From positions 2,624,001-2,688,000 of the forward strand of contig CBDCGL010000011.1 of the NCBI GenBank assembly GCA_965216755.1: a stretch of DNA of 64,000 nt. The letters are read 5' to 3'. The notes below the pieces were generated by a model. That model had not been told where the DNA came from. It saw nothing but the letters and a program-made list of their open reading frames with translations, and did no database searches. This document shows, piece after piece, positions 31,985 to 45,001 of the stretch. How positions within the stretch are numbered: the stretch's first letter is position 1; every line of letters begins with the position of its first letter. This DNA comes from Alphaproteobacteria bacterium (GTDB lineage: Bacteria > Pseudomonadota > Alphaproteobacteria > UBA7887). The position numbers and the translations under genes were made by a program.

Positions 31985-32211
31985 TCTGTTGGCCCTCCTG
32001 TGGCGCGCGCGGCACAATCGTCAAACGACACCCAAAGCTTAGGCCCGAAGCGCGGTGTTCTTGAAGCGAATTCCCGGGGCATCTGGCATGCTTTGGTTCA
32101 GCCCCCCGGGTCGCCGTGCTAAGCGTTTCGCAGAATTGTGATTTTGGCATCGGCGTCGAATCCCCATATCAACGATACAGGCACCATCATGACCATCATC
32201 GGGCCCGTGAC

Positions 32212-33090
32212 ATGCGCATTAAGTTGAGGCCGTCCCTTTCCCGCCGGCGCCTGCTGCGCGCCGGCGCGGCGGCGACCCTTATAGCGCCGCTGGGCGCGTT
32301 CCGGTCTTTGAGTGGCGCTTTCGCGCCGTCGGCCGAGCTTTGGGATCGTTGGCTGGCCCACGACGAAGGCAATGACATCGAACCAAGCATGGCCGCTTGG
32401 GATGATCTGCTTGGCCGTTACGTGCGCGCCAGTGCCCAGGGGCCGACCCTGTTCGACTATGGCGCGGTGACCGCGGCAGACCGCGATACGATCAAGCGTT
32501 TCGTCGCCGAGCTCAGCGCGGCTCCAATGAGCGCGCTCGCCCGGCGCGCGCAGTTGCCTTGTTGGGTCAATCTGTACAACGCGCTGACCGTCGACGTTGT
32601 CTTGGACAGCTATCCGGTCGCCAGCATCCGCGATATCGACATTTCGCCGGGTTTGTTCGCCAACGGCCCGTGGGACAAACAGTTGGCCGAGGTGGAAAGC
32701 GAAGCGGTCACCCTGAACGACATCGAGCATCGGATCCTGCGACCGATTTGGCGCGATCCCCGCGTCCACTACGTGCTCAACTGTGCATCGATCGGCTGCC
32801 CCAATCTTGCCCCCAACGCGTTTTTTGGCGAAACCATGGACGCCGCCATGGACCGGGCCGCGCAGGCCTTTATCAACGATCCGCGCGGCGTCATGGTGCG
32901 CGACGGCCGGATATCGGTTTCCAGCATCTATGACTGGTTTATCGAGGATTTCGGCGGCGACGAGGCCGGTGTGTTGGCCCATCTGCGCCGCTATGCCGCA
33001 CCGGACCTCGGCGTGCAACTCGACGCCATCGGCACGCTTCACACCACCCACTATGACTGGCGCCTGAACGACACCAAACTGACCGACTAA
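32212..33090 (+). CDS. DUF547 family protein with Tat signal
   Basis: SRRRLL Tat motif; WVNLYNA, TLNDIEH.ILR, DPRVHY.LNCASIGCP, YDWRLN. Confidence 0.85.
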   Translation: MRIKLRPSLSRRRLLRAGAAATLIAPLGAFRSLSGAFAPSAELWDRWLAHDEGNDIEPSMAAWDDLLGRYVRASAQGPTLFDYGAVTAADRDTIKRFVAELSAAPMSALARRAQLPCWVNLYNALTVDVVLDSYPVASIRDIDISPGLFANGPWDKQLAEVESEAVTLNDIEHRILRPIWRDPRVHYVLNCASIGCPNLAPNAFFGETMDAAMDRAAQAFINDPRGVMVRDGRISVSSIYDWFIEDFGGDEAGVLAHLRRYAAPDLGVQLDAIGTLHTTHYDWRLNDTKLTD

Positions 33091-33179
33091 CCGCACCCGA
33101 ACACCGCGCCGATTGCCTGAAAAAACGCTCTGACGTACGCTCCCTGTTGCACAAGGGCCGCGCGGCCTTGGGGGACGGC

Positions 33180-36100
33180 GTGACGAACGCTGGGCAAATA
33201 AAACAAAGACTTGCGGCGATTATGGCCGCGGATGTCGCGGGCTATTCGCGCCTGATGGCGGCCGACGAGGCGGCGACAATCGCCATGCTCGACGCTGCCC
33301 GCGCGGTGTTTCGTAGCCAGATCGCCGATCACGGCGGCCGCGTTGTCGACATGGCCGGCGATTCCGTCCTGGCGGTGTTTGACAGCGTGGTCAGCGCCAC
33401 CCGCGCCGCAACGGCTGTGCAACAGGTCCTTGGCCAAAATGGAAACGCGCGGCCCGAGGATCGCCGGATGCGTTTCCGGATCGGCGTGAATCTGGGCGAG
33501 ATCCACGAAAAAGACGATGGCACCATCTATGGCGATGGGGTCAATGTCGCCGCGCGATTGGAGGCGCTCGCCGACCCGGGCGGGGTGATGTTGTCGGACG
33601 ATGCGTTTCGTCAAGTCGATGGCAAGGTGGAATTGGCCTTTGCCGACGCCGGCAGCCATGCGGTCAAAAACATCGCCAAACCGGTGCGCGCCTATCGGGT
33701 CGTTCTGGACGGCGCCACTGCGCCGAAACCTAAACGCAAAATCACGGCGCTGACCGCCGCCCTCGCCCTCCTGATCGTCGCGGTGGCAGGCGGCGGCGCG
33801 TGGTTTTGGCAACGAAATACCGAGGAGCCCGCCGTCACAACATCGAACGGCGCCGCTCCGGCTGGTCCAACACGGCAGGAACACGAAGCGTCCGTCGCCG
33901 TGTTGCCATTTCAAAACCTGACCACCGATCCCGCCTACGCGTTTTTGGCCGACGGCTTGCACGAAAACATCATCTCAACATTGTCCCAAGCGCGCCGATT
34001 GTTCGTGCCGGCGCGGTTCTCCACGTTGCAGTTTAGAGAGCCCGATGCCGACGTCGGCCTGATCGCGCAAACTCTCGGCGTCGCCCATATTTTGGAAGGT
34101 AGCGTTCAAGTGGCCGGCAACCGGGTGCGCATTATTATGCAGCTGATTGATGGCACGACCGGCGGTCATGTCTGGACCGAACGCTACGACCGTCCACTGG
34201 AAGATATTTTCGCGCTGCAAGACGAGATCACTTTGGAGGTGGTCAACGCCCTGCAAGTGCAACTCACCGAAGGCAGCCAGGCCGCCCGCTGGCGCGGCGG
34301 CACCACCAAGATCGACGCCTGGGCAAAATGGCAACAAGGCGTGACGTTGTATCGGAATTTCTCCGAACCGGACAACGCACGCGCGCGGGACTTGTTTGCG
34401 GAGGCCGTGGACATTGATCCGGAATTCGCGCTTGGTTGGACCTATCTCGGTTTTGCCGAAGAGTCGGCCTATCGGTTTGGCTGGAGCGACGATTCCGGAC
34501 GCCTCGCACGGGCGCGCGAATATGCGGACAAGGCCTTGGCCCTCCAAGATTCGCTTGCCGTGGCTTACAATTTGCGCGCGATCGTCCATCTCACGTCCGA
34601 CGAACATCAAGCCGCCGTCGAAGCGAGCCGCCGCGCGATCGAGGTCGATCCAGGTGGCTCGTTGGCGCACGCCATCCGCGCCGTCACGTTGATGGCCGTC
34701 GGCGACTATCAGGCCGCGCTGGCGGCAAGCGACGAGGCGTTTCGGCTCAGCCCCGTGCACCCGCATTGGTACCTGTTGGACAGAGGACACGTGCTGCTCC
34801 TGTCCGGACGAATAGACGAGGCCATGGCTCTGTTAGAGCAATACACGTCGCGGGTGCCGACCGATGACGATGGCGCCCATCTGCTGGCCATCGCCACCGC
34901 CAAAAGCGGCCGCCGCGACGAGGCCAAAGCCGCCGTCGTGCGCCTTACGAAGAGATTGCCGGGCTATTCCATCGACCTCGTCCGACGCCATGGCGAACGG
35001 GCCTGGGCCTATCAGGACCCGGCCGTCCTCGAAAGCCATCTTGACGCATTGCGCAGCCTGGGCGTGCCCGAGCATCCGCCCGGCGCGGCGGCGACGCGAC
35101 CGTCAATTGCTGTGCTACCGTTTGACAATCTGTCGGGCGATCCGGAACAGGATTATTTTGCCGCCGGGCTCACCGACGAGATCATTACCGAACTGGGGCG
35201 ATTCAATGGGGTCGCCGTGGTGCCGTATGCTGGCGCAAATAGTGGCGCGCGCGCAATCGGCCAAGAAACCAATACGGCTTTCGTGGTCAATGGCAGCGTG
35301 CGCAAGGCCGCCGACACGATCAAGGTCGCCGTTCGTTTGCTAGAATCTCAAAGTGGCGCGCAACGCTGGGCAGAAACCTACGAAAATGATTTGAAGGCGG
35401 CGGATCTTTTGGATCTGCAATACGATATCGCGCAACAGATTGTCGCAACTTTGGCCGATACGTACGGCGTGCTCAGTCAAATCGGCTTGGAGACGGTTCG
35501 AAAAAAGGGCGCGGACAGCCTTCAAGCCTATGAGTGCATTTTACGGGACAATGAGTATCGGCGCGCCAACACGCCAGAGACGCATTTGATCGCGAGAACT
35601 TGCTTGGAACACGTGGTCACGGCGGAATCGAACTTCGCGGAAGCCTGGGCACGACTGTCACATGCGTACGTGGTTGAATTCGCGCAAGGATTCAATGCCC
35701 GACCAAATCCCAGCGAAGCCCTTCAACAGGGCTACGAGGCCGCCCAACAAGCGATTGCGCTCGATCGCACCGGCGAGGTTGGCTATCTCGCATTGGCGCG
35801 CGCCCTGTTCTTTCAGCGCGAACCGGAGCGTTTCCTCGCGGCCGCGGAAACGGCCGTCGATCTAAATCCCAACAACGCGGACGTGATTGGAACCATCGGT
35901 CAATATGTCGCCAACGCAGGCCATTGGGATCGCGGTTTAGCACTCATGCGAACGGCTATGACGCTGAGTCCGTTTCACCCCAGATGGTACCATATTCCAT
36001 TCATCATAAATCACTACCGCAAAGGGGAATACCAACAGGTCGTCAACTACGCCGCGCGCGCCAACATCGAGTCTTCCTGGGCGTTGGCGGCATCATTGGC

Positions 36101-36281
36101 AAGACTAGGCCGGATGGAAGAAGCCGAACAAATGGTCGCAAAACTCGTGCGCGATCGGCCGGACCTGGCAAGGACCGCCGGACCCGAACTTAAGAAATGG
36201 TACTATTCGGAGGCACTGGCAAATGACCTTTTGCAGGGCTTGCGGCTGGCCGGCCTGGCCGTTGCTGAGCCAAGCAATTAG
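33180..36281 (+). CDS. Receptor-type class III nucleotide cyclase 1: cyclase-TM-(TolB_N-like+TPR)x2
   Basis: AADVAGYS, AGDS, GDGVNVAARLE; one TM; two (S)xAVLPFxNL modules each followed by TPR helices. Confidence 0.9.
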   Translation: MTNAGQIKQRLAAIMAADVAGYSRLMAADEAATIAMLDAARAVFRSQIADHGGRVVDMAGDSVLAVFDSVVSATRAATAVQQVLGQNGNARPEDRRMRFRIGVNLGEIHEKDDGTIYGDGVNVAARLEALADPGGVMLSDDAFRQVDGKVELAFADAGSHAVKNIAKPVRAYRVVLDGATAPKPKRKITALTAALALLIVAVAGGGAWFWQRNTEEPAVTTSNGAAPAGPTRQEHEASVAVLPFQNLTTDPAYAFLADGLHENIISTLSQARRLFVPARFSTLQFREPDADVGLIAQTLGVAHILEGSVQVAGNRVRIIMQLIDGTTGGHVWTERYDRPLEDIFALQDEITLEVVNALQVQLTEGSQAARWRGGTTKIDAWAKWQQGVTLYRNFSEPDNARARDLFAEAVDIDPEFALGWTYLGFAEESAYRFGWSDDSGRLARAREYADKALALQDSLAVAYNLRAIVHLTSDEHQAAVEASRRAIEVDPGGSLAHAIRAVTLMAVGDYQAALAASDEAFRLSPVHPHWYLLDRGHVLLLSGRIDEAMALLEQYTSRVPTDDDGAHLLAIATAKSGRRDEAKAAVVRLTKRLPGYSIDLVRRHGERAWAYQDPAVLESHLDALRSLGVPEHPPGAAATRPSIAVLPFDNLSGDPEQDYFAAGLTDEIITELGRFNGVAVVPYAGANSGARAIGQETNTAFVVNGSVRKAADTIKVAVRLLESQSGAQRWAETYENDLKAADLLDLQYDIAQQIVATLADTYGVLSQIGLETVRKKGADSLQAYECILRDNEYRRANTPETHLIARTCLEHVVTAESNFAEAWARLSHAYVVEFAQGFNARPNPSEALQQGYEAAQQAIALDRTGEVGYLALARALFFQREPERFLAAAETAVDLNPNNADVIGTIGQYVANAGHWDRGLALMRTAMTLSPFHPRWYHIPFIINHYRKGEYQQVVNYAARANIESSWALAASLARLGRMEEAEQMVAKLVRDRPDLARTAGPELKKWYYSEALANDLLQGLRLAGLAVAEPSN
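35071..35326 (+). repeat. Highly similar ~255-bp block shared with 38176-38431 (junction into second sensor module)
   Basis: Both encode HPPGAAATRPSIAVLPFDNLSGDPEQDYFAAGLTDEIITELGRFNG...VRKAADTI with mostly synonymous differences. Confidence 0.85.
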
Positions 36282-36287
36282 CGTGTG

Positions 36288-39200
36288 ATGAGTGCCCCCG
36301 ATCAATCCCGCAAACTGGCCGCGATATTGGCCGCCGATGTGGTCGGTTATTCGCGTTTGATGGCCGCCGATGAAGCGGCAACAGTGCGCGCACTGAACGC
36401 CGCGCGCGATGTGTTTCGCGATCGAATCACGCACCACGGCGGCCGATTGATCGATACCGCCGGCGACAGTGTCTTGGCGGAATTCCGCAGCGTGGTTGAG
36501 GCCGTGCGTTGCGCCGTCGCGGTCCAGGATACGATTAGCGCGCAAAATACCGATGTCGCCGACGACCGCAAAATGCGGTTTCGTATCGGCGTCAATTTGG
36601 GCGACATCATCGAGCAAGACGACGGCACGATCTATGGCGATGGGGTCAATGTCGCCGCGCGGTTGGAAGCCCTCGCCGACCCGGGCGGGGTGATGTTGTC
36701 GGACGACGCCTTTCGCCAAGTCGACGGCAAGGTCGATTTGGCCTTTGCCGACGCCGGCAGCCATGTGGTTAAAAACATCGCCAAGCCGGTGCGCGCCTAT
36801 CGGGTCGTGTTGGCCGGCACCGCCGCGCCCAAGGCCAAACGCAAAGTCGTCCCGCTGGCCGCGGCCCTCGCCCTTCTGATCGCCGTGGTGGCGGCCGGCG
36901 GATGGTATTGGGCGCAGAGCAGGCCCACCGTCGAGGCGGACACGGCATCGGTCGAGCGCATGGCCTTTCCGTTGCCGGACAAACCATCGATCGTCGTGCT
37001 GCCGCTCGACAGTTTCGGAGCGGGTCCCGAATTGGAGAGGCTTGCAGACGGGTTGAGCGAAAACATCACCGCTTCGCTGTCCCATATTCGCGGATTGTTC
37101 GTCGTCGCACGAAACTCCGCATTCACCTATAAGGACAGGGCGGTCAAGGTCCAACAAGTCGCAGAGGAACTAGGCGTACGCTATGTGCTGGAAGGGAGTC
37201 TCCAGGCCGCGGGTGACAAACTACGCGTGACCGCTCAACTCATCGATGCGCTCAGCGGCGACCATGTGTGGAGCGACCGATACGACCGTGCCGCAACGGA
37301 TATTTTTGAAGTCCAGGACGATATCACGCTCAATTTGGTTAACGCCCTTCAGGTCGCGTTAACGGAAGGCACCCATGCGGCCTCTTGGCTTCAGGCAAGC
37401 AGCCATAATCTGGAGGCTTGGCGACTATTCTGGCAGGGCTATGATTTGTACTGGCAGTTTACGCCCGACGGCAATGCGCGGGCGCGCGAGCTGTTCGAAA
37501 AAGCTGTGGCGCTTGATCCCGGGTTTCAAATTGCCGCGGCCTATATCGGATGGACTCACGCTTTGGCGGCGAACCGAGGATATAGTGGATCGCGCGACGA
37601 GTCACTCACCCTAGCCGAATCGATCGCCCGCCGCCTGATGTCTATAGACGAACCCACGGCGTGGGGATACGACCTTCTAGGCTGGATCTTGGTCAGGCGC
37701 GGCGAGTATGATCTCGGCATTGAACAGACCGAGCGTGCTCTGGCGCTGAGCCCAAATGACGCGGACATTTTGGGTGCGTTGGCTGAAAACCTTCTTCTTG
37801 CCGGCCGCTACGATGATGCGCTTACGCGCATTCGCGAGGCCATGCGCCTTAATCCGTACTACCCGCCCTATCTTCTCGATGTGCTTGCCGACATCCTCCG
37901 GCTAACGGGGCGTTACGAGGACGCGATCGCCGCCGCCGAGGAGGCACTGCCACGCTATCCGGAAAGTGAGGTCGAGCCGCTGCTGTACATTGTCTACGCG
38001 AATATGAAGCTCGGCAAGCAGGCCGAGGCACGCACGGGTGTTACGGAATTGTTGCGGCGTGATCCGACTTTCTCCGTAGCTACAGGCAAGCCCAAGATAG
38101 CCCAGCGTCAACCGTATCGGGACCCGGAGGTCCTCAATGAGCTTTTTGCAGCTTTGTCGGCGGCGGGTCTGCCAAAGCATCCACCCGGCGCGGCAGCGAC
38201 GCGACCGTCAATTGCCGTGCTACCGTTTGACAATCTCTCGGGTGATCCGGAACAGGACTATTTCGCCGCGGGGCTCACCGACGAGATCATTACCGAACTG
38301 GGGCGGTTCAACGGAATCGCCGTCGTGCCTTACGCCGGTGCAAATAGCGACGCGCGCGCAATCGGCGAGGAGACCAGCACGGCATTTGTGGTTAATGGCA
38401 GCGTGCGCAAGGCCGCCGACACGATCAGGGTGACGACGCAGCTTATCGACGCCGTTACTGGTGCCCATCTGTGGGCGGAGACCTATGAGCGCGCCCTCAC
38501 CGCCGCCAATATGTTCGCGGTCCAGGATGAGGTAACGCAAATGATCGTTGCCACACTAGCAGACGCACATGGCATCATCAACAGAGCTGGATTGGAAGCG
38601 GCGAAACTGAAGCGAACCCAGAGTCTCGAGGTGTATGACTGCATCCTCCGCGACAACGCGTATCGTCGTATGGACACACCGCAGACCCATTTCACAGCGC
38701 GAGCCTGTCTGGAACGGGCGGTCGAACTCGACCCCGGCTACGCGGAGACATGGGCGCGACTCTCTCATGCCTATGTCACGGAATATTCCGAGGCTCACAA
38801 TCCGCGCCCCGATTTGTACGACGCCCTGGAGCGCGGTCACGAGGCCGCCCAGCGCGCGGTGGAACTGGATCCGGTCAACGAAGTGGCCCGACTAGCGCTC
38901 GCGCGCGCATACTTTTTCCGACACGAACCAGAGCAATTTTTCAACGAGGCCGGGCGGGCCGTCGAACTGAATCCGAACAATGCCGACGTGATCGGCACGA
39001 TCGGCATGTACTCGGCCTATGCCGGCAAATGGGAACGCGGCCTGGCGTTGCTCGAGCAAGCCATGACGCTGAGTCCATTCTATCCGGGATGGTATCATTT
39101 CCCTGACTTCTTCGACCAATACCGCAAGGGCGAATACGAGGCAGCCCTCGCGGTCGCACAGAAGATCAACATGCCAGACCACATTAGGGCGCACGCGTTG

Positions 39201-39401
39201 CTGGCCGCTGCTTACGGCCAGCTCGAACGAGCCGACGACGCTCGGCCCCACATTGAGCGGATCCTCGCCCTCGATCCCAACTTTGAACTGACGGCACGCG
39301 AAAATCGACGGAAGTTCTTCCACTACCAGGAGGACCTACTGGACCGGTACATGGACGGTCTGCGCAAGGCGGGGTTGGCGATCCCGGAAGAAAGCCAATG
39401 A
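36288..39401 (+). CDS. Receptor-type class III nucleotide cyclase 2: cyclase-TM-(TolB_N-like+TPR)x2
   Basis: Same motifs and architecture as cyclase 1; starts within a few bp of its stop. Confidence 0.9.
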   Translation: MSAPDQSRKLAAILAADVVGYSRLMAADEAATVRALNAARDVFRDRITHHGGRLIDTAGDSVLAEFRSVVEAVRCAVAVQDTISAQNTDVADDRKMRFRIGVNLGDIIEQDDGTIYGDGVNVAARLEALADPGGVMLSDDAFRQVDGKVDLAFADAGSHVVKNIAKPVRAYRVVLAGTAAPKAKRKVVPLAAALALLIAVVAAGGWYWAQSRPTVEADTASVERMAFPLPDKPSIVVLPLDSFGAGPELERLADGLSENITASLSHIRGLFVVARNSAFTYKDRAVKVQQVAEELGVRYVLEGSLQAAGDKLRVTAQLIDALSGDHVWSDRYDRAATDIFEVQDDITLNLVNALQVALTEGTHAASWLQASSHNLEAWRLFWQGYDLYWQFTPDGNARARELFEKAVALDPGFQIAAAYIGWTHALAANRGYSGSRDESLTLAESIARRLMSIDEPTAWGYDLLGWILVRRGEYDLGIEQTERALALSPNDADILGALAENLLLAGRYDDALTRIREAMRLNPYYPPYLLDVLADILRLTGRYEDAIAAAEEALPRYPESEVEPLLYIVYANMKLGKQAEARTGVTELLRRDPTFSVATGKPKIAQRQPYRDPEVLNELFAALSAAGLPKHPPGAAATRPSIAVLPFDNLSGDPEQDYFAAGLTDEIITELGRFNGIAVVPYAGANSDARAIGEETSTAFVVNGSVRKAADTIRVTTQLIDAVTGAHLWAETYERALTAANMFAVQDEVTQMIVATLADAHGIINRAGLEAAKLKRTQSLEVYDCILRDNAYRRMDTPQTHFTARACLERAVELDPGYAETWARLSHAYVTEYSEAHNPRPDLYDALERGHEAAQRAVELDPVNEVARLALARAYFFRHEPEQFFNEAGRAVELNPNNADVIGTIGMYSAYAGKWERGLALLEQAMTLSPFYPGWYHFPDFFDQYRKGEYEAALAVAQKINMPDHIRAHALLAAAYGQLERADDARPHIERILALDPNFELTARENRRKFFHYQEDLLDRYMDGLRKAGLAIPEESQ
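36642..36853 (+). repeat. 212-bp exact direct repeat, copy 1 (copy 2 at 39752-39963), within a ~690-bp highly similar block
   Basis: Base-by-base visual comparison; offset 3110 bp. Confidence 0.9.
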
Positions 39402-41386
39402 GCGCCCCCGATCAATCCCGCAAACTGGCCGCGATATTGGCCGCCGATGTGGTCGGCTATTCGCGTTTGATGGCCGCCGATGAAGCGGCAACAGTGCGCG
39501 CACTGAACGCCGCGCGCGATGTGTTTCGCGATCGGATCACGCATCACGGCGGCCGCTTGATCGACACAGCCGGCGACAGTGTCTTGGCGGAGTTCCGCAG
39601 TGTGGTTGAGGCCGTGCGTTGCGCCGTCGCGATCCAGGATAAGATTAGCGCGCAAAATACCGATGTTGCCGACGAGCGAAAAATGCGGTTTCGCATCGGT
39701 GTCAATCTGGGCGATATCATCGAACAAGACGACGGCACGATTTATGGCGACGGGGTCAATGTCGCCGCGCGGTTGGAAGCCCTCGCCGACCCGGGCGGGG
39801 TGATGTTGTCGGACGACGCCTTTCGCCAAGTCGACGGCAAGGTCGATTTGGCCTTTGCCGACGCCGGCAGCCATGTGGTTAAAAACATCGCCAAGCCGGT
39901 GCGCGCCTATCGGGTCGTGTTGGCCGGCACCGCCGCGCCCAAGGCCAAACGCAAAGTCGTCCCACTGGTCGCAGTCCTCGTTTTGCTGATCGCGGTCGCG
40001 GGCGTCGGATGGTATTGGACGCAGAACAGACCCACCGTCGAGGCGGACACCGCGTCGGTCGACCGCATGGCCTTTCCCTTGCCACAGGAACCATCGATCG
40101 CCGTGCTGCCGTTCGACAATCTGTCAGGCGACGCGGCGCAGGACTTCATCGCCGACGGCTTGTCGGAAAACATTATCTCGGCGCTCAGCCAGGCGCGCGG
40201 CATGCTGGTGATCGCGCGAAATTCCACCTTCACCTACAAGGGCAAGCCGGTGAAGGTGCAGCGGGTCGCCGAAGACCTCGGCGTGCAATATGTGCTGGAA
40301 GGCTCGGTGCAGGTGTCGGGTGATCAGATCCGGGTCACCGCGCAGTTGATCGATGCCTTGACCGGCCGCCACATGCTCAGCGAACGCTATGACCGCGCCC
40401 TTGACGACGTGTTCGCTGTTCAAGACGAGATCACCCTCAACGTGGTCAGCGCATTGCAAGTCGAACTCACCGAGGGCACACAGGCCGTCGCATGGCGCGG
40501 CGGCACGGACAATGTCGAGGCGTGGGCCCTATTCCAACAAGCCTTGATCCTCAGCCGTCGATACACGAAAGAGGACAACACGCTTTCGCGGGAGCTGCTG
40601 CAAAAAGCAGTCGGCCTTGATCCCAGTTTTGCCCTTGCCTGGGTCTATTTGGCTTGGTCTCACTGGAGCGACGCGCGGTTTGGCTGGACCGCGGACTACG
40701 ACGATGCTGTTGACCGCATGGCTTCGGCCGCGACACAAGCCTTCGAAATCGACCCCAACCTACCGGACGTCTACCTCATTCTGGCACGCGTCGCCACCAT
40801 GAAACATCACGATCTTGGTGAAGCCCTTGGCCTTGCCCGGAAAGCGGTCGAGCTTAATCCCAACCACTCGATTGCGATCGCCGAATATGGTGTACAGCTC
40901 AGATACTCCGGGTACCCTGGGCAGGCGATACCCCAATTTCAGAAAGCCATGCGGCTCAGCCCACATTACCCAGCATGGTACGCGAATAGCCTTGCAATAT
41001 CGTACATCGATAACGGCAACTTTGACGCTGCCATTCCTCTAGGCAAGGAGTTTATCGACCGAACGCCCGGTGTTAACACATGGGGCCATGAAACGCTTTT
41101 GATGGCCTATGCGGGCCTGGAACGGCTCAGTGACGCACAAGCCGTTTTGAATCAGGCGCTGGAACGCAATCCGGACTTCTCTATCCAAGAATTACAGAAG
41201 CACTTTGATCGTGAGCCGTTCGACCGAGCCATATGGGAACGACGTGTTGCGCTTTTTCGCAAGGCCGGCGTGCCCGAGCATCCGCCGGGCACAGACAACG
41301 CCGGTCGGCATGACCTGGCGCCGGTGAATCAGGGCCCGGCCCTGGCATCCATGGATATGCTCCAAAATTCATCGATGCGACCTTGA
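39398..41386 (+). CDS. Receptor-type class III nucleotide cyclase 3: cyclase-TM-TolB_N-like-TPR
   Basis: Cyclase domain nearly identical to cyclase 2; single sensor module; ATGA overlap with cyclase 2. Confidence 0.9.
   Translation: MSAPDQSRKLAAILAADVVGYSRLMAADEAATVRALNAARDVFRDRITHHGGRLIDTAGDSVLAEFRSVVEAVRCAVAIQDKISAQNTDVADERKMRFRIGVNLGDIIEQDDGTIYGDGVNVAARLEALADPGGVMLSDDAFRQVDGKVDLAFADAGSHVVKNIAKPVRAYRVVLAGTAAPKAKRKVVPLVAVLVLLIAVAGVGWYWTQNRPTVEADTASVDRMAFPLPQEPSIAVLPFDNLSGDAAQDFIADGLSENIISALSQARGMLVIARNSTFTYKGKPVKVQRVAEDLGVQYVLEGSVQVSGDQIRVTAQLIDALTGRHMLSERYDRALDDVFAVQDEITLNVVSALQVELTEGTQAVAWRGGTDNVEAWALFQQALILSRRYTKEDNTLSRELLQKAVGLDPSFALAWVYLAWSHWSDARFGWTADYDDAVDRMASAATQAFEIDPNLPDVYLILARVATMKHHDLGEALGLARKAVELNPNHSIAIAEYGVQLRYSGYPGQAIPQFQKAMRLSPHYPAWYANSLAISYIDNGNFDAAIPLGKEFIDRTPGVNTWGHETLLMAYAGLERLSDAQAVLNQALERNPDFSIQELQKHFDREPFDRAIWERRVALFRKAGVPEHPPGTDNAGRHDLAPVNQGPALASMDMLQNSSMRP
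39752..39963 (+). repeat. 212-bp exact direct repeat, copy 2
   Basis: Identical to 36642-36853. Confidence 0.9.
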
Positions 41387-41469
41387 CTATGGGCTGTGGG
41401 TGGCCTTGAGTCTGTGCGTCGAGGCCCGACTGCGCCCCGGCCCCTCAGCCCAACAATGGATTGCAGACC

Positions 41470-42648
41470 ATGACCGATCAGCCGTCGTTCTCCCCGATGC
41501 AGTATCTCGACAAAGCCCTGGGTGGCTTGCGCGAATTGGGCCTGGTGCCCGAAGAACCGAGCCAAGAAGCGCCGATTATCGCGCTGCTCGACCAAATCGC
41601 CGATTTGGATCAAGACAATGCCGTAGTCATCGCGCGCACCCTGAACCAGGCCTCGCTGTTCAACGAAGTCGTGCGCGAACAGGTGACGGCGATGAAAATC
41701 GGCGAACGCTATGAAGACATCACGAATGGCTTCAACAGTATTCGCGATGATGCTCGCAGCATGGTCGACCAAATCGCCGACGGAAAAATCGACACCCTCG
41801 AGCGCATCCAGAACATCTGGGCCAAGTTCTCGCGCGGCGATATCGCCAGCCGTTTCGACAAGATTAAGGACACCTATTTGTCAGTGGCCCGCGATACCAA
41901 GGACCAGATCGAGCGCGAGCATCTGATCCTCAACGCCTATCAGGATTTCCGCGGCGCCATGAAGCAAGCCGAGGTCTTGGCTCTGGAAATCTTCAACAAG
42001 GCCGAAGGAAAGCTGGATGCCGCCAAAGAAGTTTTGAACGGCGCCATGGCCGCGGTCGAGTCCTACACCGGCGATGATCCCGCAGAACGCGCCCGCCGCG
42101 AGATGACCCGCGATGAAAAGGTCCGCGCCCTGCAGCACGAAGAAAAGCGCTATCAAATCGCCAAGGACTTATCAGACAATCTGACCGTTGGCTACAACAC
42201 CTCGGAAGTGATCATGGCGCGGCTGATGCAAACTACGTCGGCGAAAGAACGCGTTTATTCGCAGTCAGTCAGCTTTTTCGGCACCAACGAAACCGTGCTG
42301 ACCGCGTTGACCGCTTCGTTCACCGGCATGCACGGCCTGCATGAAAGCACCGAGACACTGGAAGCGATGAAGGAAGGCATCTCCAAAAGCTTGGAGGACC
42401 TGGCCGATATTGGCGGTAAGGTGCAGGAAGCCGCGTTAAAAGCCGGCTATGGTCCAACCATTCGCGCCACCGCGGTCAAGCGCCTGGTCGATTCCGTCAT
42501 CGCCTATCAGGAACGGTCGCGCGAAATCATCGAGGAAATGCGCACCATGAGCACGCGCAATTCTCAGGAAATTCGCGACGCCGTGGAAGACGGCAAGCGC
42601 CGCCTGGCGCGCTTGGCGGAGCAAGGTAACGCCCTGGGCCATGGCTGA
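41470..42648 (+). CDS. Conserved all-helical coiled-coil protein (possibly TelA-like)
   Basis: Long amphipathic helices, no TM or signal peptide, host-like codon usage; overlaps the next gene. Confidence 0.75.
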   Translation: MTDQPSFSPMQYLDKALGGLRELGLVPEEPSQEAPIIALLDQIADLDQDNAVVIARTLNQASLFNEVVREQVTAMKIGERYEDITNGFNSIRDDARSMVDQIADGKIDTLERIQNIWAKFSRGDIASRFDKIKDTYLSVARDTKDQIEREHLILNAYQDFRGAMKQAEVLALEIFNKAEGKLDAAKEVLNGAMAAVESYTGDDPAERARREMTRDEKVRALQHEEKRYQIAKDLSDNLTVGYNTSEVIMARLMQTTSAKERVYSQSVSFFGTNETVLTALTASFTGMHGLHESTETLEAMKEGISKSLEDLADIGGKVQEAALKAGYGPTIRATAVKRLVDSVIAYQERSREIIEEMRTMSTRNSQEIRDAVEDGKRRLARLAEQGNALGHG

Positions 42649-43567
42649 CGCCACCCGCCCGCTGGACGATGTCATGCTGGCGATGGATGTCGTCGACACC
42701 CTACGCCATCGCCGAAAACTGGTCGAAAGGGAGCTGGGCGCCGACAGCCGCGACGCCCAGCTGATTGACCGCTTGCGCGAAATCTATGCCGCCCAAGGCA
42801 TCGACGTGCCCGATTCGGTTTTGGCCGAAGGCGTGACGGCGCTGAAAGAAGAACGGTTCGTTTACGAGCCGCCGCCGCCGGGGCTCAGTCGCACGCTGGC
42901 GCATCTGTACGTCAGTCGACGCCGGTGGGGCATACCGGCATTGGCGGGCATCGCCATCATCATCGCTGGTTTTATCGCCTATGATTTCGGCTACAAGCGG
43001 CCGCAGGAAGCCCGCCAAGCCGAGCAAGTAATCGCCCTGGCGGAAACGATTCCCAACGAACTGAACGCGCTGAACGCCGAGATCGAAACCCTGGCGCGCG
43101 ACCAAGACGCGGTCGCTCAGGCGACCGCATTGCGCGACCGGGGGTTGACCGCTGCGGCCGCCGGCACCGCCGCTCAGGCCGAGGCCGCGCTCGCCGACTT
43201 GAAGGCACTCAAGGCACAACTCAACCAAACCTACGAAGTCCGTATCGTCTCGCGGCCCGGTACGCCAAGCGGTGTTTGGCGTGTGCCGGACAACAATCCC
43301 AACGCGCGCAATTTTTATTTGATTGTCGAGGCACGCGATCCGAACGGCGATCCGGTTTCGGTCACGGTCACCAGCGAGGAAGACGGCGGTACCAAGGCGG
43401 TCGAAATGTGGGGCGTGCGCGTCGACGAAAGCGCGTTTAATGCGGTGCGCGCCGACAAGGAAGACGACGGCATCGTGCAAGACAGTCTGCTCGGCGTGAA
43501 GGAACGCGGTGCTCTGACGCCGGACTATGTGGTGCCGACCACCGGCGCCGCCATCTTTGAGTGGTAA
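42641..43567 (+). CDS. DUF6384-like single-pass membrane protein
   Basis: LDDVMLAMDVVDTLRH, RLREIY..QGI.VPD, ALKEERF; central TM; periplasmic helical plus beta domain. Confidence 0.75.
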   Translation: MADATRPLDDVMLAMDVVDTLRHRRKLVERELGADSRDAQLIDRLREIYAAQGIDVPDSVLAEGVTALKEERFVYEPPPPGLSRTLAHLYVSRRRWGIPALAGIAIIIAGFIAYDFGYKRPQEARQAEQVIALAETIPNELNALNAEIETLARDQDAVAQATALRDRGLTAAAAGTAAQAEAALADLKALKAQLNQTYEVRIVSRPGTPSGVWRVPDNNPNARNFYLIVEARDPNGDPVSVTVTSEEDGGTKAVEMWGVRVDESAFNAVRADKEDDGIVQDSLLGVKERGALTPDYVVPTTGAAIFEW

Positions 43568-43576
43568 ACGACCCCG

Positions 43577-45001
43577 ATGCTGTCTGGCCCCGATGCACTT
43601 CAATCGATCGACCGTGGCCTCAACGAGGCGCAACGCGATTTGGAAACAACCCAGGCCCGTGTCAAACGCGCTACCGACGAACTGGCGGCGTTGGATGAAT
43701 CCGAGGCCGAAAGTTATCGAAAGCTGGCACGGGCGCGGCTGGACGCACTGGCCCGCGATGAGGTCCTCAAGGGCTTGGACGCCTCAGACAAACGCGCCCG
43801 GGCTTTGCTCGCCGATCATGCTAACGCTTTGGAGGTGCTCGAAGAGCGCGTCGCCGAGGCCGCGCGCGAACAGGAAAGAAGCGAGCGCCAGCGCGACGCA
43901 CAAGCCGAGCGGGTCGCCGCCGCCATCGAAGCCTTCGACGACGCGGTTGCCGAAACACAACAGCGTTTGACAACTGACGCGCCCTATCAAGCGCAGTTGA
44001 CCAAAACCAAACAGGCCGACGCGGTCGCGGCCAACGCGGAAAACAAAACCGAGTTGGCACAGGCCGACCGCGACGAAAAAGGCCGCCCCTATGAAGCCGG
44101 CCCGTTGTTCATGTATTTGTGGAACCGCGGCTATGGTACACCGCGCTATCGTGCCGGCACCATTGCGCGCTTTTTCGATCGCAAGGTGGCGCGATTGTGC
44201 CGCTTCGATAAAGCGCGCGCCAACTATCACATGCTGTGTGAAATCCCCAAGCGACTGGCGGAGCACGCAGCGACCGTGCGTGCGGCAGCCGAAGACGAAT
44301 TGGCCGCGCTCGAAGACCTGGAAAACGCCGCGATGACGGCCGATGGAGTGGATGCCCTGCGTGACGCCGTGGCCCGGGAAGAGCAGGCCTTGAACGCGAT
44401 CGAAGAACAAATTGCCGCGGCCGAAGCCAAACAGCAGGAACTTGACGCGGAACGCACGCGTCTGTTTGCCGGTGATGACGACCATTATCGCGAAGCACAC
44501 GACGTATTGGTGCGGGCGCTGCGCCGCGACAGTCTGCGCGACCTGCGCCGCGATGCGCATTATACGCGCCTGCCCGATGACGATGTGGTGGTCGAGGAAC
44601 TCGCCGACATCGAAGACCGGCGCGACGACCTGGAAGACGATATCGATGACTTAAAGGGTCTGATTCGCGCCCAGGAAAAGCGCTTGCGTGAATTGCAGGG
44701 CGTCCGTCGTGATTTCAAACGCCGACGTTATGACGATCGTCGTTCGGAATTCGCCGATGGCTCGATCATTCCAATTCTGATCGGTGAGTTGCTAAAGGGC
44801 GCGATCTCGCGCGACGGTTTCTGGGGATCTCTGAAGCGACAGCATAAATTCCGCAAACGGCGCGCGGATCCCGGCTTTGGATCGGGGCGTATGGGGCGCG
44901 GCGGCGGTCCCTGGTCTGGTGGACGCATCGGCCGCGGCGGCCGTCCCCTGGGTGGGCGTCGAGTCGGCGGCGGTGGCTTCCGCACCGGTGGCAGCTTCTA
45001 A
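43577..45001 (+). CDS. Hypothetical long coiled-coil protein with Gly/Arg-rich tail ending GGGFRTGGSF
   Basis: Heptad-rich helices flanking PLFMYLWNRGYGT..ARANYHML; 9 bp after the previous gene. Confidence 0.8.
   Translation: MLSGPDALQSIDRGLNEAQRDLETTQARVKRATDELAALDESEAESYRKLARARLDALARDEVLKGLDASDKRARALLADHANALEVLEERVAEAAREQERSERQRDAQAERVAAAIEAFDDAVAETQQRLTTDAPYQAQLTKTKQADAVAANAENKTELAQADRDEKGRPYEAGPLFMYLWNRGYGTPRYRAGTIARFFDRKVARLCRFDKARANYHMLCEIPKRLAEHAATVRAAAEDELAALEDLENAAMTADGVDALRDAVAREEQALNAIEEQIAAAEAKQQELDAERTRLFAGDDDHYREAHDVLVRALRRDSLRDLRRDAHYTRLPDDDVVVEELADIEDRRDDLEDDIDDLKGLIRAQEKRLRELQGVRRDFKRRRYDDRRSEFADGSIIPILIGELLKGAISRDGFWGSLKRQHKFRKRRADPGFGSGRMGRGGGPWSGGRIGRGGRPLGGRRVGGGGFRTGGSF

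Follow-up and report, generated by a model that had tools for sequence, protein, structure and literature searches.

What a tandem array of receptor cyclases represents, a dedicated signaling system of an undescribed kind or a local cluster of a known family, is the question raised by three adjacent genes (g1–g3) in the window, the 64,000-nucleotide stretch of alphaproteobacterial DNA that we analyzed. The question matters because the study of bacterial cyclic-nucleotide signaling is held back by the fact that neither the sensed cue nor the nucleotide made is known for most receptor cyclases. We find that g1–g3 are tandem paralogs. They belong to a large family of class III nucleotidyl cyclases of the receptor type, which cross the membrane once (N-in, C-out). 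The explanation that we consider likely overall is one of tandem receptor cyclases with heads homogenized by gene conversion, old sensors that have been reshuffled, and dimer-type activation by a periplasmic ligand.

Organization of the array

The array consists of three + strand ORFs (33180–36281, 36288–39401, and 39398–41386). The ORF of g1 opens at a TTG (33147); taking GTG 33180 as the start gives an N terminus equal in length to those of g2 and g3, and this is the likely start. The candidates for g2 are GTG 36285 and ATG 36288. Read directly in the sequence, g1 and g2 are spaced by 6 bp (TAG CGTGTG ATG) and g2 and g3 share an ATGA overlap, so both junctions of the coupled trio described in the earlier sequence-only reading are visible. 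PF00211 (Guanylate_cyc) matches the N terminus of all three proteins above its cut-off of 21.9 bits, each protein has one hydrophobic 19-residue segment (residues ≈182–211) with a KRK-rich N-terminal flank, and many TPR families are matched. The same reading had proposed a cyclase–transmembrane–sensor architecture with five sensor modules; the architecture holds in all three proteins, and the five modules fall into two types, A and B. The parts are as follows.

33180..36281, +: g1, receptor cyclase with two sensor modules (ORF, Pfam, junction reading)
33216..33671, +: g1 class III cyclase catalytic domain (PF00211, 41.5 bits; pattern D,D,D,T,N,R)
33735..33812, +: g1 single transmembrane segment (Kyte-Doolittle 19-residue window 2.15; KPKRK on the N side)
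33870..35087, +: g1 sensor module 1, TolB-N-like + TPR, type A (module alignments and trees)
35082..36278, +: g1 sensor module 2, type B (module alignments and trees)
36288..39401, +: g2, receptor cyclase with two sensor modules (ORF, Pfam, junction reading)
36315..36773, +: g2 class III cyclase catalytic domain (PF00211, 45.1 bits)
36834..36914, +: g2 transmembrane segment (hydropathy)
36966..38192, +: g2 sensor module 1, type A (module alignments and trees)
38187..39398, +: g2 sensor module 2, type B (module alignments and trees)
39398..41386, +: g3, receptor cyclase with one sensor module (ORF, Pfam)
39425..39883, +: g3 class III cyclase catalytic domain (PF00211, 46.8 bits; D17, D56, D60, T114, N121, R125)
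39941..40024, +: g3 transmembrane segment (hydropathy)
40073..41293, +: g3 sensor module, type A (structure model, pLDDT 91.3)

Downstream of the array lies an unrelated TelA-like/DUF6384 gene set. The ORF at 41461–42648 was considered as a decayed sensor module and rejected (hhalign probability 0.2), and no module remnant is present in the three + strand frames of 41270–41470.

Soundness of the assembly

Short-read contigs from four runs of one study show 0 differences to the array sequence and bridge both the g1/g2 junction (35857–36323) and the g2/g3 junction (39110–39433). None of the contigs listed crosses the inner part of the head repeats. That short-read contigs end inside these repeated segments would suit an assembly artifact as the source of the near-identical heads, but such an origin is very improbable: both junctions are bridged without a difference (by runs that are possibly the assembly's own source, and so not independent), 6% of sites differ between the head copies, each of which leads into a unique sensor of its own, and the host contig measures 4.85 Mb. 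Read joints across the array had sides of only 21–23 letters and are not trustworthy.

Fold of the sensor module

Each module has two parts, a TolB-N-like α/β domain and, behind it, a TPR solenoid. The whole-module model of g3 aligns with TPR proteins at Z 17–21 as an all-helical solenoid and, with the multiple TPR profile matches, identifies a TPR repeat protein. Because generic TPR proteins swamped the VIA-align search with the whole module, the N-terminal subdomain was modeled separately (pLDDT 89.3). It superimposes on TolB (1c5k_A, residues 35–161) with a Z of 14.5 and an rmsd of 2.7 Å over 121 residues, with a Foldseek E of 1.6e-7 to the TolB N-terminal domain, and on 7mx5 (7mx5_B) with a Z of 13.6, covering residues 4–132 of the 140-residue model. 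It also matches CadC 3ly7 residues 192–316 (Z 10.8), PelC (10.9), and LpoB (8.7), and there is a profile match to FlgO (E 4e-4). These models place the predicted subdomain in the TolB_N fold group, in agreement with the label it had been given. The Pfam model TolB_N (PF04052) stays below threshold for g1–g3, with no match at E ≤ 0.01; TIGR02800 matches array proteins weakly (E 6e-6 and 1.5e-7), and PF04052 is precomputed for many homologs and present in P0129. The genome encodes a true TolB (452 bits; cut-off 343) and thus has a periplasm.

The only solved structures that cover both subdomains are the CadC periplasmic domains 3ly7, 3ly8, 3ly9, and 3lya (Foldseek E 1e-7 to 2e-6 over 317–333 columns); the rmsd of about 12 Å and TM of 0.37–0.48 make this a likeness in layout, not proof of a common mechanism. 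We rejected an identity as CadC/ToxR-like regulators, as the CadC profile NF007540 scores 33.5 bits against a cut-off of 400, the N terminus is a cyclase, and only the periplasmic layout is common; NCBIfam matches to CadC and HilA/EilA are weak. The peptide-modification-system cyclase model TIGR04510 likewise scores g3 far below its cut-off (50.7 versus 400 bits).

Homogenized heads and divergent sensors

Near-identical g2 and g3 heads over ~690 bp, 212 bp of them exact, had been reported for this locus; self-BLASTN gives 93.4% identity over 724 bp (36288–37011 versus 39398–40118, E 0), with the longest exact match of 212 bp at 36642/39752. Beyond this tract, identity falls to about 40–50%. 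The two heads are 98% identical in protein, and the TPR regions, described earlier as strongly divergent, are 14–37% identical. Two smaller resemblances were also borne out: the g1/g2 block at the entry to module 2 (88.6% over 262 bp, E 1e-88) and that of g1 and g3 around LQV.LTEG.QA..WRGGT (74–78% nucleotide identity versus 61–68% in other pairs). A g1/g2 head tract adds to these (33468–33796 versus 36573–36901, 86% over 329 bp).

36288..37011, +: g2 copy of the g2/g3 conversion tract, head + transmembrane segment + juxtamembrane linker (212 bp exact at 36642–36853)
39398..40118, +: g3 copy of the g2/g3 conversion tract (self-BLASTN, dS, breakpoints)
33468..33796, +: g1 copy of an older tract, C-terminal half of the head (86–87% to 36573–36901 and 39683–39955)
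35065..35326, +: g1 copy of the module-2 entry tract (88.6% to 38170–38431)
38170..38431, +: g2 copy of the module-2 entry tract (self-BLASTN)

Synonymous divergence follows the same partition. Between g2 and g3, dS is 0.13–0.17 in the head, 2.25 in the TolB-N part, and 1.69 in the TPR part (sensor range 1.7–2.3), a more than tenfold contrast between segments of one gene pair. For g1 and g2, it is 0.41 in the C-terminal half of the head versus 1.54 in the N-terminal half, and 0.49 at the module-2 entry with saturation elsewhere. Synonymous sites of the TPR parts are saturated (pS 0.62–0.85), which makes dN/dS unusable there. In module-wise trees ("quick" LG+G4), heads group by neighborhood and sensors by lineage, and AU tests on clades picked from the other partition's tree after viewing reject head/sensor congruence (p 0.024, 6.7e-5, 0.002, and 2e-47). 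The dS contrast and the incongruent trees together point to a mosaic produced by recombination; the former is a stronger argument than the max-chi-square breakpoints, which could partly reflect unequal constraint instead.

The three longest exact tracts among 190 paralog pairs measure 239, 212, and 77 bp, and each of them falls in the heads of two neighboring genes; two further arrays in the genome show head homogenization. From these sequence comparisons, we attribute the mosaic chiefly to gene conversion that homogenizes neighboring heads over old, divergent sensors. In this and the two other arrays, conversion between neighbors would preserve the likeness of the catalytic heads, of the membrane helices, and of the entries to the modules, and the TPR sensors would be old lineages reshuffled among paralogs. 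Of the recombination-diversified mosaic proposed earlier, the mosaic itself stands, on the dS contrast and the AU tests; diversification of the sensors by recombination, or positive selection on them, is not supported, since recent exchange homogenizes the conserved parts and the sensors are old. The locus is thereby a clean natural example of repertoire evolution.

Family size and distribution

The same head occurs at 20 loci in the genome, seven of them with two modules. In a protein search, all of the at least 8000 candidates scored have E ≤ 1e-20, and homolog names include "adenylate cyclase" and "TolB-like protein/class 3 adenylate cyclase/PilF". Sixteen of 31 related genomes, all from genera other than the host's, carry the family, the richest of them with 58 matches, and in the comparison of array content that the sequence-only reading had suggested, arrays of other genera differ in content and order. 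Synteny gave no basis for array orthology: ten flanking proteins compared with the array loci of four relatives gave one generic SDR match only, and DUF6384 is found in 0 of 30 related genomes. Three distant loci returned by a search of genome contigs were left out of the comparison.

The sensor cassette extends beyond cyclases. Among the best 148 module-bearing representatives, 51 have a cyclase head, always N-terminal; of 14 headless representatives scanned, six begin with Pkinase and five with BTAD. Cassette copies number 1–7 per protein, and one locus of this genome joins a SARP-like N terminus to the same module. By these domain combinations, the TolB-N + TPR cassette is generic, serving cyclases, Ser/Thr kinases, and SARP/BTAD regulators. 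The array therefore consists of members of a very large, annotated family and is not a new kind of system; the claim of an undescribed system fails on the 20 paralogous loci, the thousands of homologs, many already named, and the lack of an effector or defense signature. Among the papers covered by a full-text literature search, none reports on the ligand or function of cyclase–TM–TolB_N–TPR proteins.

Catalytic residues and predicted product

The metal-binding D17 and D60 and the transition-state N121 and R125 (g3 numbering) are present in g1–g3 and in 19 of the 20 family heads, in a register checked by alignment to 3mr7, Ma1120, and Rv1900c; with the PF00211 scores, they identify class III nucleotidyl cyclases. 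The purine-specifying positions were assigned partly by the numbering of the mycobacterial enzymes. The pair in g1–g3 is Asp/Thr, D56 aligning with the Lys of 3mr7 and Ma1120. An adenylate cyclase would have Lys followed by Asp or Thr; here the first position is Asp and the second Thr. The naming of the positions also rests on PMC4215837, which gives the guanylate cyclase pattern as Glu followed by Cys/Ser/Thr/His/Ala/Gly. Against that pattern, the first position is acidic but Asp rather than Glu, and the Thr fits. Lys/Asp occurs in 0 of the 20 family heads and 0 of the five other class III domains of the genome. Among 51 non-redundant heads with these sensors, the pairs are D/T in 19, K/D in 17, and D/R in seven, with the other catalytic residues intact in each class, and such discrete classes look more like a specificity switch than drift.

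Because the Asp/Thr pair occurs with the other catalytic residues kept, the array may make a product other than cAMP, for which we offer cGMP as a reasoned guess; a single second-messenger output is plausible, its chemical identity uncertain. That the heads are true adenylate cyclases, tolerating Asp/Thr much as some mycobacterial enzymes tolerate non-canonical pairs, is a substantial possibility that falls short of being probable. Homologs are named "adenylate cyclase" in the sources, and canonical Lys/Asp is found both in the closest solved relative, 3mr7 (E 2e-37), and in the 17 K/D heads; the absence of Lys/Asp from this genome, the discrete pair classes, and the resemblance of an acidic residue plus Thr, His, or another to the guanylate cyclase pattern (PMC4215837) speak against it. 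Replacement of the substrate Lys by Asp could also reduce activity or abolish it. Loss of this Lys would be expected of dead heads in proteins that act as scaffolds or sensors and make no nucleotide, which we judge quite unlikely: both metal Asp residues, the Asn, and the Arg are invariant in 19 of 20 heads, head dN/dS is 0.09–0.35, and the one clearly degenerate head of the genome (E,R,D,G,A,R) differs from the rest.

More tentatively, and as something we would not expect to prove correct, the Asp/Thr (and Asp/Arg) heads could be guanylate or other non-adenine cyclases, the 19 intact loci and a large share of the thousands of homologs then being an unrecognized family of periplasm-sensing cGMP receptors. 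Under this reading, neighboring heads would stay interchangeable through gene conversion, and array members could form heterodimers that integrate up to four sensor modules. If Asp/Thr heads were GTP-specific, a very large family would be misannotated as "adenylate cyclase", and the view that guanylate cyclases are scarce in bacteria would have to be revised.

Proposed mechanism

The putative signal is a ligand in the periplasm, for which a peptide, a protein, or a component of the envelope is the likeliest candidate. Its binding to the TPR/TolB-N module would alter the pairing of two chains across the membrane. The two paired heads would form common active sites, and the resulting cyclic nucleotide would be sensed by cNMP-binding proteins whose genes lie away from the array; cNMP_binding has 10 matches in nine ORFs of the genome.

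A stronger version makes the array a dedicated, undescribed combinatorial sensing or surveillance system, in which recombination diversifies the sensors and heterodimers merge five of them into one output. The near-identity of the g2 and g3 head proteins makes heterodimers sterically plausible, the genes are translationally coupled, and another tandem pair combines the degenerate head with an intact one, as in obligate heterodimeric cyclases. Homogenization of adjacent heads in three arrays would fit selection for compatible dimer partners; however, conversion between tandem repeats needs no selection, and in one genus (labeled g3, distinct from the gene) adjacent-gene heads group by orthology, not by genome. 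Sensor divergence is ancient (saturated dS) rather than recent, and the genes are ordinary members of a family with 20 loci here and thousands elsewhere. No effector or defense gene is linked: PADLOC models gave no effector match among the five neighboring proteins scanned, the PycC similarity of the array is generic (17–25 bits), and the TelA-like/DUF6384 set is unrelated. We therefore regard such a dedicated system as unlikely and favor conversion-homogenized receptor cyclases of a known family.

Comparison with known systems

Pycsar PycC resembles the array in its class III-type cyclase domain and in the weak PADLOC matches; the array differs in having no effector gene among the five neighbors scanned and in encoding membrane receptors. 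Membership was rejected, the PycC scores lying below those of the general Pfam model. The closest solved head is 3MR7 ([quoted passage not shown]; E 2.4e-37 over 167 residues), which has the same short arm region but Lys and Asp where g1–g3 have Asp and Thr.

Receptor-type class III cyclase expansions such as that of Sinorhizobium meliloti share with this genome sensor-fused catalytic domains, many paralogs, and CRP-like cNMP receptors, whereas the array has an N-terminal catalytic domain, a periplasmic TolB-N-like + TPR cassette, and the Asp/Thr pair. The CyaF group of S. meliloti may have the architecture seen in the array. Deletions of cyaF1–F7 are listed in PMC13001267 without architecture, PMC8939145 treats cyclases only in passing, and PMC10127613 counts 28 putative AC/GC genes in S. 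meliloti. The 886-residue XC_0250 of Xanthomonas campestris is described (PMC3770947) as having a class III cyclase domain at its N terminus with TPRs behind it, an order like that of the array, and as making cGMP, not cAMP, in vitro. It is reported to have Leu and Ala at the transition-state positions, where the array keeps Asn and Arg.

On the periplasmic side, the TolB N-terminal domain and its fold relatives (FlgO, FlgT, PelC, LpoB, and CsgG) share fold and location with the array modules, although TolB continues into a β-propeller that the modules do not have. The CadC periplasmic sensor (3LY7–3LYA) likewise places an α/β N-terminal subdomain and a helical-repeat C-terminal subdomain outside a single membrane helix; its output is a ToxR-type DNA-binding domain instead of a cyclase, and the TPR part of the array modules is longer and the modules can be tandemly duplicated. 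On present evidence, the array belongs to a known class as an ordinary member, and what is of interest in it is the pattern of its evolution.

Gene layout and predicted topology of the array

Three open reading frames, all running in the same direction, make up the tandem cyclase array:

33147-36281, + strand, g1; open from TTG 33147 (1044 aa counted from there), likelier start GTG 33180
36288 onwards, + strand, g2; ATG six bases past the g1 stop, 1038 aa
39398-41386, + strand, g3; ATGA overlap with the g2 stop, 662 aa

The GTG is the likelier start of g1 because the N-terminus then equals those of g2 and g3 in length. Each protein begins with a Pfam class III cyclase domain (41.5, 45.1, and 46.8 bits for g1, g2, and g3, respectively, against a cut-off of 21.9), and many TPR models match C-terminal to it. 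Exactly one strongly hydrophobic stretch is present per protein, at residues ~182-211, flanked by KPKRK or KAKRK on its N-terminal side and by acidic residues on the other. Given this single stretch with a basic N-terminal and an acidic C-terminal side, the head is predicted to be cytoplasmic and the remainder extracytoplasmic. Among the proteins of this genome is a genuine TolB (452 bits versus a cut-off of 343), and the extracytoplasmic compartment is therefore a periplasm.

The stretch is present in four runs of one study (0.88-0.95 of the sampled words), and the contigs of these runs match it with no differences. They break within the repeated head segments, as expected for short-read graphs, and bridge the g1/g2 (35857-36323) and g2/g3 (39110-39433) junctions. 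With every unique sensor piece accounted for, no linear path other than the assembled order exists; as the four runs may themselves have been the source of the assembly, this agreement is a matter of consistency and not of independent proof. The runs listed for the stretch include no RNA run.

The sensor module combines a TolB-N-like domain with a TPR solenoid

We aligned 43 sensor modules from the source genome and four related genomes (alignment A1) and modeled residues 226-632 of g3 (mean pLDDT 91.3). The model predicts a β-α subdomain (model residues 1-135) and, C-terminal to it, a repeat that is helical throughout. When the whole model was searched against the PDB with Foldseek, generic TPR proteins were among the matches, and both subdomains were covered only by the periplasmic domain of CadC (3ly7, 3ly8, 3ly9, and 3lya). 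These alignments reach E values of 1e-7 to 2e-6 over 317-333 columns, yet the rmsd is ~12 Å and the TM score 0.37-0.48. TPR proteins dominated when the Foldseek list was realigned structurally. Because the whole-module search was swamped in this way, the first 140 residues were modeled separately (model A2, pLDDT 89.3). An exhaustive structural search with this subdomain placed the TolB N-terminal domain first (1c5k_A, Z 14.5, rmsd 2.7 Å over 121 residues), with a second TolB structure, 7mx5_B, at Z 13.6. FlgT-ring, PelC, and CadC (3ly7 residues 192-316, Z 10.8) come next and LpoB lower (Z 8.7). Foldseek agrees with this search, and a sequence profile of the subdomain weakly matches FlgO (E 4e-4) and PelC. 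The label TolB_N-like, assigned in the sequence-only reading, thus fits the best fold match of the model. As modeled, the layout of the whole module would be that of a CadC-like periplasmic sensor.

Recent recombination homogenizes the heads

Self-BLASTN and a codon-aligned sliding window recovered every sequence similarity that had been listed for the array. The g2 and g3 genes are 93.4% identical over 724 bp from their start codons, including an exact match of 212 bases at 36642/39752; past this tract, the two are 55-70% identical across the TolB-N-like part and ~40% across the TPR part. The g1 gene is ~90% identical to both in the C-terminal half of the head only, and it shares with g2 a block of 262 bp (88.6%) at the entry to module 2.

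Synonymous divergence (dS) between array genes by segment
g2-g3, head: 0.13-0.17
g2-g3, TolB-N-like part: 2.25
g2-g3, TPR part: 1.69
g1-g2, head, C-terminal half: 0.41
g1-g2, head, N-terminal half: 1.54
g1-g2, module-2 entry: 0.49
g1-g2, rest of module 2: saturated

A max-chi-square scan places a g2/g3 breakpoint at position 37011, with 6% differences to the left and 50% to the right; the observed value was reached by 0 of 1000 permutations, a result that, for the scan alone, is compatible with unequal constraint. The segment contrasts in dS separate recombination from mere constraint. The mosaic also reaches past the array. In their TolB-N-like parts, g3 and a paralog 2.6 Mb away on the same contig (C11:42636-45791) share 80-91% DNA identity (dS 0.75, dN 0.04), with saturation in the heads and TPR parts.

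When 190 paralog pairs were compared, the longest three exact tracts (239, 212, and 77 bp) each fell in the heads of neighboring genes, and each in a different array. The two further arrays are:

G000:C11:4407981-4413783, source genome, tandem array with head homogenization (239-bp exact tract)
G000:C11:396619-401912, source genome, tandem array with head homogenization (77-bp exact tract)

Head homogenization is a general habit of these arrays. The sensors are old: their synonymous sites are saturated, so neither recent sensor diversification nor positive selection is demonstrable. Of the proposal of a mosaic receptor repertoire diversified by recombination, the recombination-shaped mosaic stands, with recent events that homogenize the conserved parts and do not diversify the sensors.

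Heads and sensors have separate histories

Trees were built (quick LG+G4) from all paralogs of the source genome plus the genes that form arrays in four relatives; paralogs are named here by their start on C11. In the head tree, grouping follows physical neighborhood: g2 joins g3 (support 99), then g1 and 42636 (support 97); 4409972 and 4411879 fall together, as do 396619 and 399927. The sensor modules group differently, with their TolB-N-like and TPR halves mutually consistent. The first module of g3 pairs with that of 42636, and the first module of g1 with 465677, 2734864, and 396619 (support 100 and 99). AU tests reject imposing the clades of one partition on the other (p = 0.024, 6.7e-5, 0.002, and 2e-47), for groups that were chosen after viewing the other partition's tree and on the same quick trees. 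Head and sensor phylogenies are thus incongruent, in keeping with the mosaic first suggested.

Two deep module types, A and B, are separated with support of 100. Type A modules are mostly first and type B mostly second, and A-A and B-B proteins also occur. In one related genus, two species carry the same array of 865, 1033, and 632 aa, and a third has another gene order, in which the sensor lineage of the single-module gene has an extra second module. Modules are therefore gained, lost, and re-paired, and arrays vary between relatives.

A large family built on a reused cassette

The source genome holds 20 loci with this head, seven of them with two modules. Three loci of the genome stand out:

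G000:C11:2957041-2958940, family member split into overlapping head (236 aa) and sensor (572 aa) ORFs, probably a frameshifted pseudogene
G000:C11:4451016-4452590, family member with a degenerate head (E, R, D, G, A, and R at the six catalytic positions)
G000:C11:576491-578638 (L019), SARP-like regulator with the same sensor module, 715 aa, SARP/AfsR-like N-terminus (E 1.5e-14)

The degenerate-head gene sits 393 bp upstream of an intact paralog (4452983-4454869); the pairing recalls obligate heterodimeric cyclases, in which a pseudo-subunit is combined with an active one. L019 is a one-component counterpart of the cyclases, in the style of CadC/ToxR.

A word-indexed protein search returned at least 8000 matches, all scored ones at E ≤ 1e-20; among the 120 matches listed, most are about 1030 aa long, with source names such as "adenylate cyclase." The family occurs in 16 of 31 related genomes (source genome counted), with up to 58 matches in some; four complete genomes of one genus among these 31 have no match. 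With a profile of the module, 114,894 cluster representatives were recovered at E ≤ 1e-30; single public proteins carry as many as seven modules in tandem (P0124 is 2837 aa long). Among the best 148 representatives, 51 carry this cyclase head, always N-terminally. Fourteen of the 97 headless ones were scanned: six begin with a Ser/Thr protein kinase domain, five with BTAD, and three have no other domain at E ≤ 1e-12. Given this abundance with cyclase, kinase, and BTAD partners, the cassette is a widely reused extracytoplasmic sensor, not special to this locus. The array had been put forward as an undescribed signaling or surveillance system, a claim that these results do not support. Its genes encode receptor-type class III cyclases, a kind already known, and fall in a very large annotated subfamily for which our literature searches found no characterization. 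PADLOC offers only PycC similarity of 17-25 bits within the array, and nothing ties it to defense or surveillance.

The flanking genes are as follows:

32116-33090, + strand, DUF547 protein gene ending 90 bp before g1
41461-45001, + strand, three tightly packed genes following a 74-bp gap after g3:
first, 395-aa helical protein, TelA-like lead
second, DUF6384 protein (E 1e-128)
third, coiled-coil protein of 474 aa, weakly similar to SMC and LmuB

The nearest ESM-Atlas clusters of the first are named "cell surface protein," and in some of these clusters 52% of the members carry TelA (PF05816). DUF6384 is absent from the 30 related genomes searched. The cNMP-binding proteins of the genome (10 matches in 9 ORFs) all lie away from the array, the nearest about 97 kb off.

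An Asp/Thr specificity pair in an otherwise intact site

The closest solved structure to the head is 3mr7 (E 2.4e-37). In g3 numbering, the metal-binding Asp17 and Asp60 and the transition-state Asn121 and Arg125 are all present, and inactive heads would be quite improbable. Four positions before the second metal ligand lies Asp56, where 3mr7 and Ma1120 have Lys and Rv1900c has Asn; the second specificity position is Thr114, versus Asp in 3mr7. The 20 family heads comprise 14 Asp/Thr, five Asn/Thr, and one degenerate pair, and the five other class III domains of the genome have Q/T, Q/A, Q/L, K/A, and E/T. All 25 class III cyclase-domain ORFs detected there lack the canonical Lys/Asp substrate pair. 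This pair does occur among the 51 non-redundant heads on this cassette (19 D/T, 17 K/D, 7 D/R, and 8 others); a closer, redundant set of 122 proteins has 80 D/R, 11 D/T, and 6 D/H, with 7 unmatched by the pattern.

According to PMC4215837, adenylate cyclases conserve Lys and Asp, and guanylate cyclases pair Glu with Cys, Ser, Thr, His, Ala, or Gly. Set against that pattern, a site that pairs an acidic first residue with Thr and is intact elsewhere appears guanylate-cyclase-like, but with Asp, not Glu. Judged from these residues, the heads may make cGMP or another nucleotide, a tentative assignment; cAMP, the product that the database names imply, is a somewhat less likely one. The Asp/Thr pair and the generic TolB-N + TPR cassette are of interest, as is whether the conversion-maintained heads permit heterodimers; a cGMP or other-nucleotide product together with functional heterodimers is, as a joint proposition, unlikely.

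XC_0250 of Xanthomonas, which makes cGMP and not cAMP in vitro (PMC3770947), offers a comparison by description. It is reported to be without the Asn/Arg pair that g1-g3 keep, and like them it has its class III domain at the N-terminus and TPRs behind it.
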